Below the pieces are notes generated by a model. It was not told the origin of the DNA. It worked only from the letters and a program-made list of their open reading frames with translations, and made no database searches. Below are positions 6,338-19,490 of a stretch of DNA of 64,000 nucleotides, in pieces. A program made the position numbers and the translations under genes. How positions within the stretch are numbered: position 1 is the stretch's first letter; each line of letters opens with the position of its first letter. Source of the DNA: Escherichia phage vB_EcoM-ZQ3; sequence record MW630116.1; one strand, given 5' to 3'.

Positions 6338-7419
<1,082 letters not shown>

Positions 7420-10091: not shown

Positions 10092-10388
10092 ATGATTTTA
10101 ACTGAACAAGAAACTATGGTTCTTCGTGAACGTATTAAAACTATTCTGTCTGTAGGCGTTCATTGTGTTGTATTTGAAAAGGCTAACGGTGATGTTCGTA
10201 CGATGTTTGCCTCCCGTGATGAACTTGAAGTCAAATACGAAAATAACAATCCGGCAACAGAAGTTCGTTATGAACCTCGTGAATCAGTTCGAGCATTCGA
10301 TACCAAGTTAGGCCAGTGGCGTTCTTTCCGCCTTGATAAAGTAATTTCGGTTGATGGTACTCCGGTAGAACGTTTGCTTCTTATGTAA
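10092..10388 (+). CDS. hypothetical protein (31.x position)
   Basis: 98 aa from ATG 10092 (ORF-track start 10080 is GTG inside the cd stop region). Confidence 0.4.
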   Translation: MILTEQETMVLRERIKTILSVGVHCVVFEKANGDVRTMFASRDELEVKYENNNPATEVRYEPRESVRAFDTKLGQWRSFRLDKVISVDGTPVERLLLM

Positions 10389-11827: not shown

Positions 11828-12199
11828 ATGAACACTATCAATTTAAATGCTACAATTAAATGCCGTGACCATGATGGATATAAATCTCAAGTTGTTAACG
11901 AGTTACAGTGGATGGTTCGTTCAGTTCAAGGTGATGTGGTTTATTGTACAACTCCTGATGGCCCTTCAGACGATTTTTGTTATCATATCGAAATTGAAAA
12001 CTTTTTCACTGGTGAAATTTACCGTCTGAATTCTACAGTTTATGGTTGTATTCGTTCTAAAACTTACGAAGATGAAGAGACTGGTTACTCTGAAGATGTT
12101 GTATGGTACGAAAATGCCAGAAATCGTGCAGAGTCATTAATCGAGAAGATTAAAGCAAAAGGTGTTATTGATTCAGCTAAGTGGACAAAAATCAAATAA
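11828..12199 (+). CDS. hypothetical protein (30.x region)
   Basis: 123 aa ORF, SD GGAGAA. Confidence 0.45.
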   Translation: MNTINLNATIKCRDHDGYKSQVVNELQWMVRSVQGDVVYCTTPDGPSDDFCYHIEIENFFTGEIYRLNSTVYGCIRSKTYEDEETGYSEDVVWYENARNRAESLIEKIKAKGVIDSAKWTKIK

Positions 12200-12203
12200 A
12201 AAT

Positions 12204-12232
12204 GTTTACTTTGGTACAGGTTATGTTATTAT
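12204..12232 (+). promoter_or_regulatory. T4-type early promoter
   Basis: GTTTAC, 17-nt spacer, TATGTTATTAT. Confidence 0.65.
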
Positions 12233-12273
12233 AGACCTGTACCAACAAACAACTTAAACATCTGGAGAATAAA

Positions 12274-12639
12274 ATGAACTACACCAACTTCGAACGCAAA
12301 TATGTTTCTAACGGTATCGCTGGTTCTATCGATATGGTTTGTTTGTGGAAGCATAAAAATGGTTCAGTATGTGAAATTGAGCAGTGCATGGCTCCTAATT
12401 ATGTTTATATGCGATTTGAAAATGGCATCACGGTTTCAATCACGATGGAAGGTTCCAACTTCAAAATTGCATTAGATGACGATTTCCGTCAACGTGATTT
12501 AGGTACTCATCCTTGCTGGAACGGTGTTAATCGTAAACTTCTGGTTAAAACTTGGATTCGTCATATCCTGAGTAACCGAGCTAAACCTGAACACCTGGAA
12601 GCAATCTTTGATGTAGTTCTGAACGAATTCGACATCTAA
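12274..12639 (+). CDS. hypothetical protein (30.x region)
   Basis: 121 aa ORF, SD GGAGAA. Confidence 0.45.
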   Translation: MNYTNFERKYVSNGIAGSIDMVCLWKHKNGSVCEIEQCMAPNYVYMRFENGITVSITMEGSNFKIALDDDFRQRDLGTHPCWNGVNRKLLVKTWIRHILSNRAKPEHLEAIFDVVLNEFDI

Positions 12640-12674
12640 TTTAACTGGGAGCTTCGGCTCCCACTGAGGAAATT

Positions 12675-13289
12675 ATGTTTAAAGTTAATACTTTTTATAA
12701 AATGAATTTTAAAAATGGGGATATTACTCCACGCCTTAAAAACATGTTCTCATATGACCTTATCGAGCCTTTTGAAGTTTTAGAAGTTACTGATGCCGGC
12801 TCGGTTTGTGAAATTAGAACTTCTGAAGGTAAAATTTATCAGGCAGGTGTTGGTAAATTCAGTAATTGTTTTACTTTAATATTCTCGACCGATTTAGATG
12901 AGCATTTTATTGAATGTCCTAACCCTAAGGTCCACGAAGTTCCACATCAAGAAACTAAGAAAAATGGCCCGCACGAATATACGAAGGTTGAAACTCCTCA
13001 CGGCGTGATGTGGCGTCATAACTCTCCTTTTGGAAGTAAAGGAACATTTGCTCAACCGTCTAAACCGTATGACGATGAAAAATACATCGTCGTCTTTTTA
13101 TCTGAACAAGGTACTCAAGACCGTGGATGCCAGCGAAGTGGTTTACTAAGTGAACTTGAAGCTCATAACCAAGCACGTGAATTCGTTGAGAAAAATCCTG
13201 GTTCTGAAGCTCTAGTCATGAAAGCAATTACTCAATATATCACTGCTCAACCTGTTGTTCATCCGGTAGAAATTAATTTCGTTAAGTAG
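12675..13289 (+). CDS. hypothetical protein (30.x region)
   Basis: 204 aa ORF, SD GAGGAAA; preceded by GGGAGC-UUCG-GCUCCC hairpin at 12650-12665. Confidence 0.45.
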   Translation: MFKVNTFYKMNFKNGDITPRLKNMFSYDLIEPFEVLEVTDAGSVCEIRTSEGKIYQAGVGKFSNCFTLIFSTDLDEHFIECPNPKVHEVPHQETKKNGPHEYTKVETPHGVMWRHNSPFGSKGTFAQPSKPYDDEKYIVVFLSEQGTQDRGCQRSGLLSELEAHNQAREFVEKNPGSEALVMKAITQYITAQPVVHPVEINFVK

Positions 13290-13319
13290 TTTACATCCAA
13301 GGACGGATTAGAGTATAAT
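13289..13319 (+). promoter_or_regulatory. T4-type early promoter
   Basis: GTTTACA, ~19-nt spacer, GAGTATAAT. Confidence 0.6.
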
Positions 13320-13343
13320 GATTTCTTTAGTAAGTGGAAAAAT

Positions 13344-13541
13344 ATGAAATTTTTAATAGCACAAACAGTTCAATTAAAAGGTGTTGGAATTCCTGGGGTG
13401 ATTTTTAAAGTTCTCCCTGAATTTAAAACCGGCGCTGGAATTATCAATGAAGCGTATGCTGTTCAATGGGTTGATTGGACTTCTGACATACGTATGGGTA
13501 AAGAGTTATCTCCTATTAAAGGGTTGAAACATGTTGAATAA
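13344..13541 (+). CDS. hypothetical protein
   Basis: 65 aa ORF. Confidence 0.4.
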   Translation: MKFLIAQTVQLKGVGIPGVIFKVLPEFKTGAGIINEAYAVQWVDWTSDIRMGKELSPIKGLKHVE

Positions 13542-13743
13542 ATTAATCCAGAAATTGTTTGGTACGGAAATGATCGAAGTTACTTATCGTGTAACAGACT
13601 GCTCGCCTATTCATCCACAGGATGAACCGTTTATCAAGACAATTAAAATGCTTAAAAATGACGGTGGTTTATCTATTGAAGACCGTCTGCCTAGTTACGG
13701 ACATTGGGCTGATGTTGAAATTATAAGTGTTAAAGATGTCTGA
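13531..13743 (+). CDS. hypothetical protein
   Basis: 70 aa ORF overlapping neighbours. Confidence 0.4.
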   Translation: MLNKLIQKLFGTEMIEVTYRVTDCSPIHPQDEPFIKTIKMLKNDGGLSIEDRLPSYGHWADVEIISVKDV

Positions 13744-14194
13744 ATTAGAAATAAGAAGCAATTTCAAATGGCCGTCATGCGCATTAAGTAATTTTGCCCA
13801 GTGGCCTTTCGTTATGGATGGTATTCAATTCGGAGGTCTTGAAGGATTTCTCCAAGGATGTAAGGTGAAAAATGTTGAACAACAAAGACGTATATTTGGG
13901 CTGTCAGGACTGGCCGCACAGCAAGCTGGAAGGTCTTATGCAAGAGCTCAGGACCATGGGACTCTCTTCTGGTTAGGAGTTCCATTTTCAAGATACTCTG
14001 AAGCATGGAAAGAATTATATACAAATGCATATTTTGAAGCAGCGATCCAAAACAAGGGGTTTCGCGACGCCTTACAAGCCTCTAAAGGAAAAATTTTGAA
14101 GCACAGCATGGCCAGCCACCTAACAAAAGATGATACAATATTAACTGAAGCTGAATTTATTGATGTGTTAAACCTATTAAGAGACTCTTTATGA
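13736..14194 (+). CDS. NADAR / YbiA-like (DUF1768) domain protein
   Basis: 152 aa from ATG 13736; N-terminal signature LSNFAQWPFVMDG...LEGFLQGCKV resembles the FSNFxxWP...DG...EHYFQAxK core of E. coli YbiA. Confidence 0.55.
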   Translation: MSELEIRSNFKWPSCALSNFAQWPFVMDGIQFGGLEGFLQGCKVKNVEQQRRIFGLSGLAAQQAGRSYARAQDHGTLFWLGVPFSRYSEAWKELYTNAYFEAAIQNKGFRDALQASKGKILKHSMASHLTKDDTILTEAEFIDVLNLLRDSL

Positions 14195-15006
14195 AGCCTA
14201 CTATTTTGACTGATATTGATGGTGTATGTTTAAGCTGGCAATCTGGACTTCCTTATTTTGCCCAAAAATATAATCTTCCATTAGAACATATTTTAAAAAT
14301 GATTCAGGACGAAAAATTTATTTCTCCTGGTAAACTGTTCAATACCGACGATAACCTTGGTAAACAATTAATAGAAAAATATAATAGCTCTGATTTTATT
14401 CGTTACTTAGCGCCTTATTCGGATGCTCTTCGAGTTATCAATAAACTAAAAGAAGACTATAATTTTGTAGCCGTGACGGCGCTAGGTGATTCAATTGATG
14501 CTCGATTGAATAGACAATTTAATTTGAATGCTTTGTTCCCAGGCGCTTTTTCTGAAGTAATGATGTGTGGTCATGATTCGTCAAAGGAACAATTATTTGA
14601 ACTAGCTAAAACAAAATATAACGTGATTTGTTACGTTGACGATTTAGCTCATCATTGCGACCATGCAGCAGAAATTCTTAATGTACCGATTTATTGGTTG
14701 GCTCGTGGTGAACGTGATGCCATTCCTCGTACTGCACAACGTGTACACACGTGGGATGATATTGAATCTCGTTTGGTTCCACCCGAGCATAATTCAGATT
14801 CAGATCGTGAAGACCTTTTAAAACGATTGGCGGATTTGCTTAAAGAATCTGGTACAACAAGTCCAGGTGCATGGCCTAATCAAATTGGCGCTCCGTCGAA
14901 TCCGTATACCTGGCGAACCCAAGGACCAACCGATATGCGGCCATGGTGGACGATTCAAACCTTTCCTTTAGATTCGTCCAAATGGACTTGGTCTACAAAT
15001 TGTTAA
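14191..15006 (+). CDS. HAD-superfamily hydrolase (5'-nucleotidase-like)
   Basis: 271 aa; N-terminal HAD motif I ILTDIDGV; unusual W/P-rich C-terminal tail. Confidence 0.5.
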   Translation: MKPTILTDIDGVCLSWQSGLPYFAQKYNLPLEHILKMIQDEKFISPGKLFNTDDNLGKQLIEKYNSSDFIRYLAPYSDALRVINKLKEDYNFVAVTALGDSIDARLNRQFNLNALFPGAFSEVMMCGHDSSKEQLFELAKTKYNVICYVDDLAHHCDHAAEILNVPIYWLARGERDAIPRTAQRVHTWDDIESRLVPPEHNSDSDREDLLKRLADLLKESGTTSPGAWPNQIGAPSNPYTWRTQGPTDMRPWWTIQTFPLDSSKWTWSTNC

Positions 15007-15015
15007 GGGTTAATT

Positions 15016-15285
15016 ATGTTTGTAGTTCATGATATTACAGATGGCAAAAACACCACACGTGACTACGGTCATGTTAACATGTTCTTTCGAGACTGGCCGT
15101 TGTTTCGTTCAGTAAAAGACGCAGAAATATTTAAAGAGTGTGTTGAACAAGGGTTCATCTACATTTCAGAATACTATGTTGAAGGACTCGGTAAATGGAT
15201 TACCACTTATCAGAAAACGCTGAAATCGCTTCTAGATGAAGTGGCTTATAATAGAACCGTAACCAAAATCGAGGACATCAAATGA
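15016..15285 (+). CDS. hypothetical protein (30.1 position)
   Basis: 89 aa ORF; stop overlaps DNA ligase start. Confidence 0.4.
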   Translation: MFVVHDITDGKNTTRDYGHVNMFFRDWPLFRSVKDAEIFKECVEQGFIYISEYYVEGLGKWITTYQKTLKSLLDEVAYNRTVTKIEDIK

Positions 15286-16775
15286 TTTTAGATATTTTAA
15301 ACCAAATAGCTGCGATCGGTTCTACTAAAACAAAACAAGAAATCCTTAAGAAAAATAAGGACAACAAATTACTTGAACGTGTGTATCGTTTAACATATGC
15401 ACGTGGTATCCAGTATTATATTAAGAAATGGCCAGGACCAGGTGAAAGGTCTCAAGCGTATGGTCTTCTTGAATTAGATGACATGTTGGATTTTATTGAG
15501 TTCACATTAGCCACTCGTAAACTCACTGGTAATGCTGCAATTAAAGAGCTCATGGGTTATATCGCTGACGGTAAACCTGATGATGTAGAAGTCCTTCGTC
15601 GTGTAATGATGCGAGACCTTGAAGTAGGTGCTTCAGTGTCTATCGCGAATAAGGTGTGGCCTGGACTTATTCAATTGCAACCACAGATGTTAGCATCTGC
15701 ATATGATGAGAAATTGATTACTAAAAATATTAAATGGCCCGCATTTGCCCAATTAAAAGCAGATGGTGCTCGTTGTTTCGCTGAAGTTCGCGATGATGGT
15801 GTTCAATTCTTTTCTCGTGCCGGTAATGAATACCATGGTCTTACTCTATTAGCTGATGAACTAATGGAAATGACTAAAGAAGCTCGTGAAAGACACCCTA
15901 ATGGGGTTTTAATCGACGGTGAATTAGTTTATCATTCATTCGATATTAAAAAGGCTGTGAGCTCAGGAAATGACCTGTCGTTCTTATTTGGTGATAATGA
16001 AGAATCCGAAGAAGTACAAGTTGCAGACCGTAGCACTTCAAATGGTTTAGCAAATAAATCTCTTCAAGGGACTATTTCTCCTAAAGAAGCGGAAGGTATG
16101 GTTCTTCAAGCCTGGGACTATGTTCCTTTAGATGAAGTCTATTCTGACGGCAAAATTAAAGGTCAGAAATACGATGTTCGTTTTGCTGCTCTTGAAAATA
16201 TGGCTGAAGGCTTTAAGCGAATTGAGCCAATTGAAAATCAGTTAGTTCGTAATCTTGACGAAGCTAAAGTGGTTTATAAAAAATATGTTGACCAAGGTCT
16301 TGAAGGTATTATCCTTAAAAACCGTGATTCATATTGGGAAAACAAACGCTCTAAGAACCTAATTAAATTTAAAGAAGTTATTGATATCGCTTTAGAAGTT
16401 GTAGGATACTATGAACATTCTAAAGACACTAACAAATTAGGTGGTGTCGAACTCGTATCACGTTGTCGTCGTATTACAACCGATTGTGGTTCAGGGTTTA
16501 AAGATACAACTCATAAAACAGTTGATGGTGTAAAGGTTCTTATTCCTTTAGATGAGCGTCATGATTTGGACCGTGAACGATTAATGACCGAAGCTCGTGA
16601 AGGTAAATTGATTGGACGTATTGCTGATTGTGAATGCAATGGTTGGGTTCATTCTAAAGGACGTGAAGGCACTGTAGGTATTTTCCTTCCAATTATTAAA
16701 GGGTTCCGTTTTGATAAAACAGAAGCGGATTCGTTTGAAGACGTATTTGGACCGTGGTCCCAGACAGGTTTATAA
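15282..16775 (+). CDS. 30: ATP-dependent DNA ligase (gp30)
   Basis: 497 aa (T4 ligase 487 aa); adenylation motif KADGAR; closely colinear with T4 gp30 as recalled. Confidence 0.92.
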   Translation: MILDILNQIAAIGSTKTKQEILKKNKDNKLLERVYRLTYARGIQYYIKKWPGPGERSQAYGLLELDDMLDFIEFTLATRKLTGNAAIKELMGYIADGKPDDVEVLRRVMMRDLEVGASVSIANKVWPGLIQLQPQMLASAYDEKLITKNIKWPAFAQLKADGARCFAEVRDDGVQFFSRAGNEYHGLTLLADELMEMTKEARERHPNGVLIDGELVYHSFDIKKAVSSGNDLSFLFGDNEESEEVQVADRSTSNGLANKSLQGTISPKEAEGMVLQAWDYVPLDEVYSDGKIKGQKYDVRFAALENMAEGFKRIEPIENQLVRNLDEAKVVYKKYVDQGLEGIILKNRDSYWENKRSKNLIKFKEVIDIALEVVGYYEHSKDTNKLGGVELVSRCRRITTDCGSGFKDTTHKTVDGVKVLIPLDERHDLDRERLMTEAREGKLIGRIADCECNGWVHSKGREGTVGIFLPIIKGFRFDKTEADSFEDVFGPWSQTGL

Positions 16776-16963
16776 TGAAAGCTTATTTAGAAACAGTTAT
16801 TGTAGCTAAGAAGGATGGTGGAGATGTTTCCACCTCTTGCTCTCAGATTATATTAGATTTTCCTAATGAAAATTCGTATCGGGTTTTCGTAGATAACGTT
16901 AATGGGTACGAAAAAGGCCCTAATTTTGAAGTTTATCGTACTTTGCTCCCGATTGTGGATTAA
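16775..16963 (+). CDS. hypothetical protein
   Basis: 62 aa from ATG 16775 overlapping ligase stop (TAATG); ORF-track start 16754 is GTG. Confidence 0.35.
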   Translation: MKAYLETVIVAKKDGGDVSTSCSQIILDFPNENSYRVFVDNVNGYEKGPNFEVYRTLLPIVD

Positions 16964-16983
16964 GAGCCTTCGGGCTCTTTTTG
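16964..16983 (+). terminator. rho-independent terminator
   Basis: GAGCC-UUCG-GGCUC hairpin followed by TTTTT. Confidence 0.7.
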
Positions 16984-17018
16984 GCATAAATATAAATTAT
17001 TACTAAAAGGAAAACACT

Positions 17019-19106
17019 ATGTCTGAACAATTAAATGAAGTGTTTGAATCTGAAGGCGGTCTTCCTGTCGTCAATTTGAACCCTAAAGCTAAAGTTCCAC
17101 AAGTCTGGAAAATTGGTGATATCGATACAAACATCGTAGTTCGCTTATTCTCTTATCTTTCTGAAGGCGATGCTGTAAAACAAGTTAAACTTGGCGACAA
17201 ATATGCTCATGTTGTTATTATGAGTCTGTCTGAAAAGGGTAATCTCGCTGAATTGAAAAATGGCCTTGGTCCTGCTCCTATTGATGCAATCAACACTATT
17301 TTCAATACAGTATATGAACAGGTTAAAGCTCTTCGTATGGATGCAGTTCTGTTCCGGTTCCCTACCAAGAAATTGAAAGGACGTGGACAGCAGCTTCAAA
17401 CTCTTCTTGCTCGTTTAGTTTCTACTAAAACCGGTGGTCGTTTTAAAGTATTGTCGGCAATGTATCAATTCACAGGTAAACACACCTATGTGATGATGGT
17501 TCGTAAAAATGCTAACATTGAAGATATTAAAGGCATCCCTAACATTAACACAGAGTTGTACACGAAAGTAGATTCTGATGTTGGCGAAGTTTATGTGAGT
17601 AAAAAGACTGGCGAAACGGTCACCAAAGAAACAGCTATCGCTGGTTCTATTGCTGCTGTAGAAGAAAAACGTAAAGATAAGCCTGTTATTGCTCGTACTA
17701 AAATTTCTCGTCGTGCTATTGCAGCAAGTCAATCTTTAGAAGCTGACCGTCAAGAAGGTGAGTTATTCCAGAAATACGAAAATTCTGCTAAAGAAGTTAG
17801 TGGCCCAGCTACAGCCGAATTACTTCCTGAAGCATATGAAATCGTACTAGCCCAAGCATCGTCCACAGCAAAAGGCACTTTAGTTGCTGATATCGAAAAT
17901 AAGATTTATAATCGTATTGATGAATCCTTTAAATTTGCCGATGAAGTTTCTTATGGTAGTGTTATTAAGCCAACTTTAGAAAAGTTTGCTAAGAAAATTA
18001 AAACTGAAAAAACAACATCTGTTAAAGCATTAGCTGCTTTTGTTGAAGCTGCAAATGAAATTGCAGACTCTATTAAAGACGAATGGTTTGAAGATTTTAG
18101 ACGTGATAATTTCCAACTGCCCGACGACGTTTTAGCTGAAGTATCTGAAAGAACTTGGAAACAACGTAAATCAGCGTTCTTGTCTAATGTGATGTATACT
18201 TATGCACGGGAATCGGCTAGAGGCACCTTTAATATAACAATGAATCGGGACCCTAAACAATACTCTGTTGCTGAAAAACGAGCTATTCGTGAATATGCCT
18301 CTTCTGCGTATATCGATATCAATAATATGTTGTTAGGTCGTTATAAACCAGATTTTTACGATGTTGCAGATGAAGATGAAGTTAAACGCGCTATTGATGG
18401 TCTTGATTCGGCGTTTTTAAATGGAGACCGTTTACCTGAAGGACTAACGTTATATAGAGCTCAGTCTATCAGAATGCCTATTTACGAAGCAATGGTTAAA
18501 AATAAGGTATTCTACTTCAGAAACTATGTTTCCACTTCACTAGCTCCTATTATTTTCGGCGGGTTTAAAGAGAACGTTGCCCTTGGACTTGCTCCTGAAG
18601 AAGTTCGCAAAGAGCTTAACATTGATAATAATGACGAAGGTGTTACTATTTCTCCTAGTCAAGTAAGAACAGCTATGCATGCACCAGACCAAATCCGTGT
18701 TAACGTTGGATGGGCTATTGATGGCGCCCATAAAGTTAACGTGATTTATCCTGGACAGTTGAGTAATCACCCTAATGAGCAAGAAATTATTTTGCCTAGA
18801 GGCATTCTCTTGCAGATAAATAAAATTACAGATGCGTCATCTGACACTGGTGCAGGTTTAGAATCCAACCTTAAATTTATTCAAGCTGAAGTCATGTCCT
18901 CGGACCAGTTGGACGAAGCTGTCATTTACGACGGTGATGTTCTCATGGAAACAGGTGAGGTGGTTGCTATGACGGGTGAAATCGAATCAGATGAGCCGAT
19001 ATCGTTCTCCTCATTTGTAGAAAAAACTAGTGCTCCTAAAGGATTGAAATTGTTAGCATCTTTAATGGATTTAGAATCAGTTCCGTTTAAATTTGTCCAA
19101 GGATAG
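17019..19106 (+). CDS. alt: Alt ADP-ribosyltransferase (packaged, modifies host RNA polymerase)
   Basis: 695 aa (T4 Alt 682 aa); ART catalytic triad pattern R (YARESARG), S-T-S (YVSTSLAP), E-x-E (NEQEIILPRG) in C-terminal half. Confidence 0.8.
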   Translation: MSEQLNEVFESEGGLPVVNLNPKAKVPQVWKIGDIDTNIVVRLFSYLSEGDAVKQVKLGDKYAHVVIMSLSEKGNLAELKNGLGPAPIDAINTIFNTVYEQVKALRMDAVLFRFPTKKLKGRGQQLQTLLARLVSTKTGGRFKVLSAMYQFTGKHTYVMMVRKNANIEDIKGIPNINTELYTKVDSDVGEVYVSKKTGETVTKETAIAGSIAAVEEKRKDKPVIARTKISRRAIAASQSLEADRQEGELFQKYENSAKEVSGPATAELLPEAYEIVLAQASSTAKGTLVADIENKIYNRIDESFKFADEVSYGSVIKPTLEKFAKKIKTEKTTSVKALAAFVEAANEIADSIKDEWFEDFRRDNFQLPDDVLAEVSERTWKQRKSAFLSNVMYTYARESARGTFNITMNRDPKQYSVAEKRAIREYASSAYIDINNMLLGRYKPDFYDVADEDEVKRAIDGLDSAFLNGDRLPEGLTLYRAQSIRMPIYEAMVKNKVFYFRNYVSTSLAPIIFGGFKENVALGLAPEEVRKELNIDNNDEGVTISPSQVRTAMHAPDQIRVNVGWAIDGAHKVNVIYPGQLSNHPNEQEIILPRGILLQINKITDASSDTGAGLESNLKFIQAEVMSSDQLDEAVIYDGDVLMETGEVVAMTGEIESDEPISFSSFVEKTSAPKGLKLLASLMDLESVPFKFVQG

Positions 19107-19135
19107 TTTACAAACACATGGATGTGTGATACTAT
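19106..19135 (+). promoter_or_regulatory. T4-type early promoter
   Basis: GTTTACA, 18-nt spacer, TGTGATACTAT; lies at the 3' end of alt. Confidence 0.7.
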
Positions 19136-19164
19136 CATCCCATCAACAACATGAGGAAAACGTT

Positions 19165-19458
19165 ATGAAATCTATGCTTCGCTTTAATGGTCAAGAACTA
19201 GTAGTTGAAGATGTTATCCCAGCGGATGATGCTTTTAACGAAGCTGTGATTGACGAATTGAATCGAGTATTCCCAGGTGCATTCCATATTGCTATGGAAC
19301 CTCTTAAAAACTTTCGTGACCCTGAACACACCGATCAAATTTTTGTCGGTGTAGTGACGGGTCATTTAGAAACAGAGGTACCAATGGTCGTATTAGTTAA
19401 ATACTCTAAAGATGATACTCCATTCCGAGCACCAGCATTCCTTTCATTCCGTAAATAA
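19165..19458 (+). CDS. hypothetical protein
   Basis: 97 aa from ATG 19165 with SD GAGGAAAA; ORF-track start 19093 precedes the promoter. Confidence 0.45.
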   Translation: MKSMLRFNGQELVVEDVIPADDAFNEAVIDELNRVFPGAFHIAMEPLKNFRDPEHTDQIFVGVVTGHLETEVPMVVLVKYSKDDTPFRAPAFLSFRK

Positions 19459-19464
19459 ACCCCT

Positions 19465-19490
19465 AAAGGGAGACAACGTCTCCCTTTTTC
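19465..19490. terminator. bidirectional terminator between convergent early (+) and late (-) units
   Basis: GGGAGAC-AAC-GUCUCCC hairpin flanked by A-run upstream and T-run downstream. Confidence 0.7.

Follow-up and report, generated by a model that had tools for sequence, protein, structure and literature searches.

NADAR enzymes and phage counter-defence against DarTG1

NADARs of the YbiA type are N-glycosidases that act on riboflavin intermediates. E. coli YbiA is a housekeeping N-glycosidase encoded in a LexA-controlled operon, and it gave no protection against DarT1 in vivo (PMC11125620). The NADAR antitoxin of the DarTG1 system, DarG1, belongs to the BC4488 subfamily, with 8bat and the E. 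coli C7 NADAR as examples, and its reported chemistry is on guanine-N2-ADP-ribose (PMC11543638). The third catalytic position differs between subfamilies and is Glu in YbiA, Asp in the DarT1-associated NADARs (DarG1) and His in the phage NADARs (gp30.3) (PMC11543638, PMC11125620).

Gp30.3 of phage T4 was renamed AdfN by Johannesman et al. (Nat Commun 2025; PMC11825919). AdfN was both necessary and sufficient for T-even phages to withstand the DarTG1 toxin-antitoxin defence, it removed ADP-ribose from DarT1-modified DNA, and the phenotype of the adfN deletion was DarTG1-specific (PMC11825919). The substitutions E36A and K43A each impaired AdfN-T4, and C-terminal truncation lowered its activity (PMC11825919). 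Counter-defence against DarTG1 during infection was demonstrated for the T4 and T2 alleles only (PMC11825919). In vitro, T4 gp30.3 hydrolysed guanosine-ADP-ribose in DNA and did not hydrolyse thymidine-ADP-ribose (Toxins 2024, PMC11125620) or cytidine-ADP-ribose (PMC12945103); it also removed guanosine-ADP-ribose from RNA, more weakly than the E. coli C7 NADAR (PMC11833690). The construct of the Toxins 2024 study, "T4 phage NADAR (gp30.3)", was given as residues 1–208 (PMC11125620); T4 30.3 in NC_000866 encodes 152 aa.

In uninfected E. coli, AdfN-T4 gave no rescue from DarT1 toxicity (PMC11825919, PMC11125620), so its in vivo mechanism involves more than the isolated enzyme. It was fully effective only during T-even infection (PMC11825919), which implies a further phage co-factor. 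AdfN-Bas32 and AdfN-Bas60, the NADARs of T5-like phages and Vequintavirinae, are likewise phage-borne orphan NADARs that counter DarTG1; according to the published description they differ in belonging to other NADAR clades, in having been acquired independently and in neutralising DarT1 even in uninfected cells (PMC11825919). Of the T-even phages in that study only RB69 was sensitive, since its 30.3 gene carries an additional T at nt 411 that shortens the protein by 15 residues (PMC11825919).

The fold, chemistry and biological role of adfN are already known from work published in 2023–2025. The points specific to the DNA analysed here, a 64,000-nucleotide stretch of Escherichia phage vB_EcoM-ZQ3 (MW630116.1; the window), are an adfN allele that is intact, unlike that of RB69, and a few neutral-looking substitutions. 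Very probably, the ORF at 13736–14194 is gene 30.3, the ortholog of adfN, in an RB69-like Mosigvirus; the T4 product of this gene removes DarT1-placed ADP-ribose from phage DNA. The identity, family and fold of its product, the conserved catalytic residues and the intactness of the allele were established by the comparisons below.

The 30.3 locus and its gene order

The coordinates of the adfN ORF (13736–14194, + strand) are exactly those of the initial annotation. It starts with ATG, ends with TGA and consists of 152 codons plus stop; from its sequence it is predicted to encode a phage-type NADAR ADP-ribosylglycohydrolase. The ORF listing placed the start further 5', at GTG 13727. The ATG was preferred because it agrees with the annotated starts in T4, RB69 and 348Ecol098PP. 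The motif of the translation reads L17-S18-N19-F20-A-Q-W23-P24, followed by D28-G29 and then by E36-G-F38-L-Q40-G-C-K43. The NADAR core reported by the initial annotation was present; its "FSNF" was a misquotation, as adfN reads "LSNF" and FSNF is the form found in E. coli YbiA.

The gene 30.4 homolog upstream (13531–13743, + strand) was identified by PHROG 2042 (E=1e-34) and by synteny with T4 and RB69, and its last 8 nt, stop included, are shared with the start of adfN. At the other end, the TGA of adfN overlaps the ATG of gene 30.2 as ATGA (14191–14194), and the same overlap is found in T4. The order of genes in the window was 30.8, 30.7, two or three small ORFs, 30.4, 30.3, 30.2, 30.1, DNA ligase, alt.1 and alt. 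This is the order of the "30.x" early block of T4, after which comes the convergent late gene 54, and the synteny 30.4, 30.3, 30.2, 30.1, ligase and alt is common to the window and T4. The ORF thus lies at the orthologous position of Phage_30_3/AdfN within the early block of T-even phages (30.4, 30.3, 30.2, 30.1, ligase).

A consensus scan found a T4-early-like promoter candidate at 13290–13319 (+ strand; TTTACA-18-TATAAT, 11/12), as a pattern match only. The series of overlapping ORFs follows downstream, and the candidate could drive the 30.5-like ORF, 30.4, 30.3 and 30.2. An ORF of 204 aa (12675–13289; PHROG 17531, no Pfam match) sits between 30.7 and the 30.5-like ORF. T4 and RB69 hold the gene 30.6 of ~95 aa in this place instead, and 12675–13289 appears to be a slot for variable accessory genes in the early block.

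In T4, an out-of-frame ORF of 75 aa, 30.3', is annotated inside 30.3 (T4 locus 6403–6630). An equivalent as a second product of adfN was rejected, since the longest ORF in the alternative + strand frames within adfN (13794–14099) was 34 aa. T4 30.3' is not conserved in the window and is unlikely to be a real gene.

Megablast of positions 13000–16000 matched 687 phage records, the best matches being Escherichia phages vB_EcoM_JQD51 (99.5%), F2 and JS09. Among the close matches, 348Ecol098PP (97.2%) belongs, like RB69, to the genus Mosigvirus, and its GenBank record already labels the 30.3 ortholog "ybiA-like protein" and the neighbour "HAD-like protein". The 30.2, 30.1 and ligase proteins of the window shared 97–99% aa identity with those of RB69. 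The window is from an RB69-like Mosigvirus.

Assignment of gp30.3 to the NADAR family

Comparison of the adfN protein with Pfam gave a full-length match to PF08010, Phage_30_3 (E=4e-69, 231 bits, gathering cut-off 36), residues 11–150 aligning with positions 1–138 of the 138 in the profile. The match to PHROG 652 had E=1e-51. The match of the protein to its family is far beyond chance. In a search against representatives, the best 150 matches were all close family members; the gp30.3 family comprised 1680 representatives when clustered at 50% identity.

The single protein gave no match to the Pfam NADAR profile PF08719 at E<=1, none to the PDB sequences by phmmer at E<=10, and none to the NCBIfam and PADLOC models, so NADAR membership rests on profile and fold evidence. 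Two other Phage_30_3 members matched PF08719 weakly (E=1.6e-4 and 3.8e-4, both below the gathering score), and one family protein (P0081) bears both Pfam labels, Phage_30_3 and NADAR. A family alignment and profile were built from 50 diverse gp30.3 homologs. When the PDB sequences were searched with this profile by hmmsearch, the top match was E. coli YbiA, 2b3w (E=0.0012). Profile-profile comparison with E. coli YbiA by hhalign gave a probability of 94.3% (E=9.6e-8, 91 columns).

The AlphaFold2 model of the adfN protein had a mean pLDDT of 93.7 and a pTM of 0.89. In this model, strands 3–5/25–27/30–32 and 76–79/82–85/120–122 lie around helices, giving a predicted helical core flanked by two small beta-hairpins, as in the NADAR fold. 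The top three Foldseek matches in the PDB were 2b3w, 8bau and 8bat, all NADARs, and the remaining matches had E>7. The best structural match was YbiA (2b3w; E=3e-4, TM 0.66); 8bau is the Phytophthora NADAR (PnNADAR) with ADP-ribose, and 8bat is a DarG1-type NADAR of Geobacter lovleyi.

The residues predicted to be catalytic were invariant among the 50 homologs. E36 (codon GAA, 13841–13843, + strand) aligns with the Glu of "SEHYFQAQK" in YbiA, and K43 (codon AAG, 13862–13864, + strand) aligns with the YbiA Lys; this putative pair corresponds to the catalytic Glu/Lys of NADARs, E88/K95 in the E. coli C7 NADAR. H123 (codon CAC, 14102–14104, + strand) directly follows the final modelled beta-strand (residues 120–122), at the predicted third catalytic position. 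The residue at this position is the His of the phage NADAR subfamily and not the Glu of the YbiA subfamily.

Three independent lines, namely the profile, the fold and the invariant catalytic residues, support Phage_30_3 as a divergent branch of the NADARs, and the NADAR/YbiA-like domain proposed by the initial annotation was borne out. The check proposed there, an HMM search against NADAR/DUF1768, was less clear. Taken on its face it would indicate a different family, since the adfN protein misses PF08719 and Pfam files it under Phage_30_3; the family profile did match YbiA.

Comparison with YbiA showed that both are minimal single-domain NADARs and that YbiA is the best match by structure and by profile; the two proteins differ in sequence (18% identity) and in the residue at H123, which is Glu in YbiA. 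DarG1 shares the fold and the Glu/Lys catalytic pair with the adfN protein. In contrast to DarG1, adfN has no adjacent DarT toxin gene, its neighbours being 30.4 and 30.2 and the only nearby ADP-ribosyltransferase being Alt (PF03496), 2.8 kb off. The adfN protein also consists of the core only (152 aa, compared with 219 in 8bat) and lacks the N-terminal extension, and it has His where DarG1 has Asp at the third catalytic position. Neither the adjacent DarT1 gene nor the combination of Asp and N-terminal extension that marks DarG1 was found, and T4 AdfN is unable to replace DarG1 in uninfected cells (PMC11825919).

Long multi-domain proteins with a gp30.3-type domain were also surveyed among metagenomic and genomic representatives. 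The 10 proteins scanned (including P0206, P0254, P0281, P0316, P0329 and P0341) showed fusions to BspA-type LRRs, SLOG (YpsA), Lgt and an FtsW-like membrane region, as well as tandem copies. The gp30.3-type NADAR domain thus extends beyond stand-alone phage proteins.

The adfN allele compared with those of T4 and RB69

The adfN protein was identical to T4 gp30.3 at 146 of 152 residues (96%). The two proteins share the length of 152 aa, E36/K43/H123, the C-terminal helix, the place of the gene between 30.4 and 30.2 and the ATGA overlap; T4 is a Tequatrovirus, whereas the window phage is a Mosigvirus. The six substitutions from the window to T4 were K11R, H74R, E89P, I120V, M125I and H128G, and none of them touches an invariant or nearly invariant column of the family alignment. 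Five residues past H123, in a variable loop, residue 128 is H in the window and G in both RB69 and T4.

The aa identity between the window and T4 was 96% for adfN, 93% for 30.7 and 40–64% for 30.8, 30.4, 30.2, 30.1, ligase, alt.1 and alt. The adfN protein was the most conserved of the early block (11828–19106). The adfN codons differed from those of T4 by 37 synonymous and 6 non-synonymous changes, which indicates that the gene has been under strong purifying selection. Recent horizontal transfer was rejected as the cause of the high similarity, since 37 synonymous differences have accumulated.

The state of the allele is of interest because the window phage is a relative of RB69, whose gp30.3 is a natural loss-of-function allele in the closest genomic background. 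The first 137 aa of RB69 gp30.3 were 96% identical to those of the window; RB69 gp30.3 is frameshifted and has lost the last 15 aa, whereas the window allele has no insertion. The extra T of RB69 (column 411 of the DNA alignment) is absent from the window and from T4, and would fall after base 14145 of the window. In the window, the adfN frame stays open up to the stop codon used in T4 and still encodes the C-terminal helix, which is modelled at residues 138–151 (14147–14188, + strand) and is lost from the RB69 allele. A 71-nt probe across the RB69 insertion (RB69 10236–10306) matched 608 phage records, among which the extra base occurred only in the two records of RB69, both of the same genome. 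The RB69 insertion looks like a lesion specific to a lineage or a laboratory stock. Because the RB69-type insertion is absent and the C-terminal helix is kept, the window adfN is predicted to be functional and the phage resistant to DarTG1.

The chemistry and the anti-DarTG1 role are carried over from the published experiments on the 96%-identical T4 protein, and from its sequence we infer that the window allele behaves in the same way. AdfN would be a stand-alone, minimal NADAR-fold enzyme produced early in infection. Host DarT1, the toxin of the DarTG1 defence, would ADP-ribosylate the phage DNA, and AdfN would cut the N-glycosidic bond between the guanine N2 of the DNA and C1'' of ADP-ribose; replication would be restored once the ADP-ribose had been stripped. 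E36 and K43 would hold the distal ribose, H123 would supply the third catalytic group, and the C-terminal helix, intact in the window allele, would be needed for full activity.

The initial annotation had suggested that the protein could reverse DNA ADP-ribosylation by a DarT-type toxin, and experiments on AdfN, its T4 ortholog of 96% identity, demonstrated this activity (PMC11825919; in vitro, PMC11125620). The correct function was recovered by reading the sequence alone. The state of adfN is useful in the prediction of host range and in the choice of therapy phages, and the present phage is predicted to plate on E. coli carrying DarTG1. The case also touches on the question of which T-even protein potentiates AdfN.

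Neighbouring enzymes and alternative roles of adfN

Gene 30.2 (14191–15006, + strand), directly downstream of adfN, had been annotated initially as a HAD-type phosphatase that might form a small nucleotide-processing module with adfN. The HAD part of this claim held. The motif residues D8, D10, G11, K132, D150 and D151 of gp30.2 were invariant and T96 nearly so. The Pfam matches to Hydrolase, HAD_2 and NT5C were all sub-threshold, and the NCBIfam search gave only a far sub-threshold match to HAD_type_II (E=0.093). The PADLOC models gave no match. The HAD assignment needed the predicted structure, because the gp30.2 profile found only chance-level matches among the PDB sequences. The AF2 model had a pLDDT of 84, and Foldseek against the PDB gave 95 matches at E<=1e-3. 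The best 50 of these 95 were all HAD-fold proteins, including two designed esterases, and the best match was 2jao, a 5'(3')-deoxyribonucleotidase (E=8e-8). Membership of the HAD superfamily (motifs I–IV: DxD, T/S, K, DD; Rossmannoid HAD fold) was confirmed on the predicted structure; gp30.2 is a predicted HAD-fold hydrolase, and a phosphatase activity is plausible. The C-terminal tail of ~45 residues is Trp/Pro-rich and disordered, with pLDDT <50 over most of 227–271, and many gp30.2 homologs of ~200 aa are without it.

The two genes might form a two-enzyme unit for nucleotide processing, in which, for example, the HAD protein dephosphorylates a ribosyl or ADP-ribose product set free by the NADAR, or gp30.2 is the factor that AdfN needs. 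The ATGA overlap, which T4 also has, is consistent with such a unit, as are the HAD fold with its four motifs and nearest relatives among the 5'(3')-deoxyribonucleotidases, the reported need of AdfN-T4 for a further T-even factor (PMC11825919), and the occurrence of each gene in about 1,450-1,500 phage records. This co-occurrence is, however, confounded by shared descent, and 30.3 and 30.2 are not neighbours in KVP40, RB43, Rhizobium phage N34 and Ralstonia phage RSP15. No 30.2 was found within 4 kb of 30.3 in KVP40, N34 and RSP15, and in RB43 three ORFs lie between 30.3 and 30.2, the latter staying with ligase. The rates of evolution were also unequal (96% aa identity to T4 for 30.3 and 64% for 30.2), a HAD domain was present in 0 of the 10 gp30.3-domain fusion proteins, and free ADP-ribose, the reaction product, would not be an obvious substrate of a HAD nucleotidase. 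The module as a whole is therefore considered very unlikely. Since AdfN needs a further T-even factor and 30.2 is its translationally coupled neighbour, gp30.2 was kept as a lead of low probability: that it is the factor needed for full in vivo activity, the 30.3-30.2 pair acting as a two-component anti-DarT unit, has a very slim chance of being correct.

The placing of an Alt ADP-ribosyltransferase at 17019–19106 (+ strand) by the initial annotation agreed with the match to PF03496 (E=1.7e-27) and with 91.6% aa identity to RB69 Alt. Alt modifies protein arginines. The alt gene lies 2.8 kb from adfN with four genes between, in the same early block, and Iyer et al. 2022 (PMC9503650) had noted early expression of T4-like NADAR genes together with those for ADP-ribosyltransferases. 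These observations would fit an adfN that mainly reverses or tunes the phage's own ADP-ribosylation (by Alt, ModA and ModB) of host proteins or RNA; the initial annotation had offered the tuning of phage-driven ADP-ribosylation. This role is extremely improbable, for the modification made by Alt is on protein arginines, whereas the T4 NADAR is active only on guanine-ADP-ribose and not on thymidine- or cytidine-ADP-ribose (PMC11125620, PMC12945103), and the published deletion phenotype is DarTG1-specific (PMC11825919). The linkage is not conserved either, as no ADP-ribosyltransferase gene adjoins the 30.3 homologs of KVP40, Rhizobium phage N34 and Ralstonia phage RSP15. In the literature surveyed, no work on protein arginine-ADP-ribose as a substrate of AdfN was found.

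It was also considered whether adfN acts mainly on soluble or RNA substrates, such as riboflavin intermediates, ADP-ribose-derived immune signals or guanosine-ADP-ribose in RNA, with DNA as a secondary target. YbiA-type NADARs do act on riboflavin intermediates, and a fusion with a SLOG domain occurs in one protein of the family. A preference of phage NADARs for soluble ADP-ribose derivatives was proposed by Iyer et al. (PMC9503650), and the T4 NADAR can remove guanosine-ADP-ribose from RNA in vitro, more weakly than the C7 enzyme (PMC11833690). However, the adfN protein has H123 in place of the Glu characteristic of the YbiA subfamily (PMC11543638), T4 AdfN is tied to DarT1-modified DNA by both genetics and biochemistry (PMC11825919), and no soluble substrate was reported in the literature for the phage NADAR clade. 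A main role on such substrates is unlikely, and removal of ADP-ribose from DarT1-modified phage DNA is the preferred reading of adfN.

At the end of the early block, a strong terminator-like hairpin at 19465–19487, with a 10-bp stem followed by a T run, separates the alt.-3/DUF5498 homolog (19093–19458) from the convergent late gene 54.
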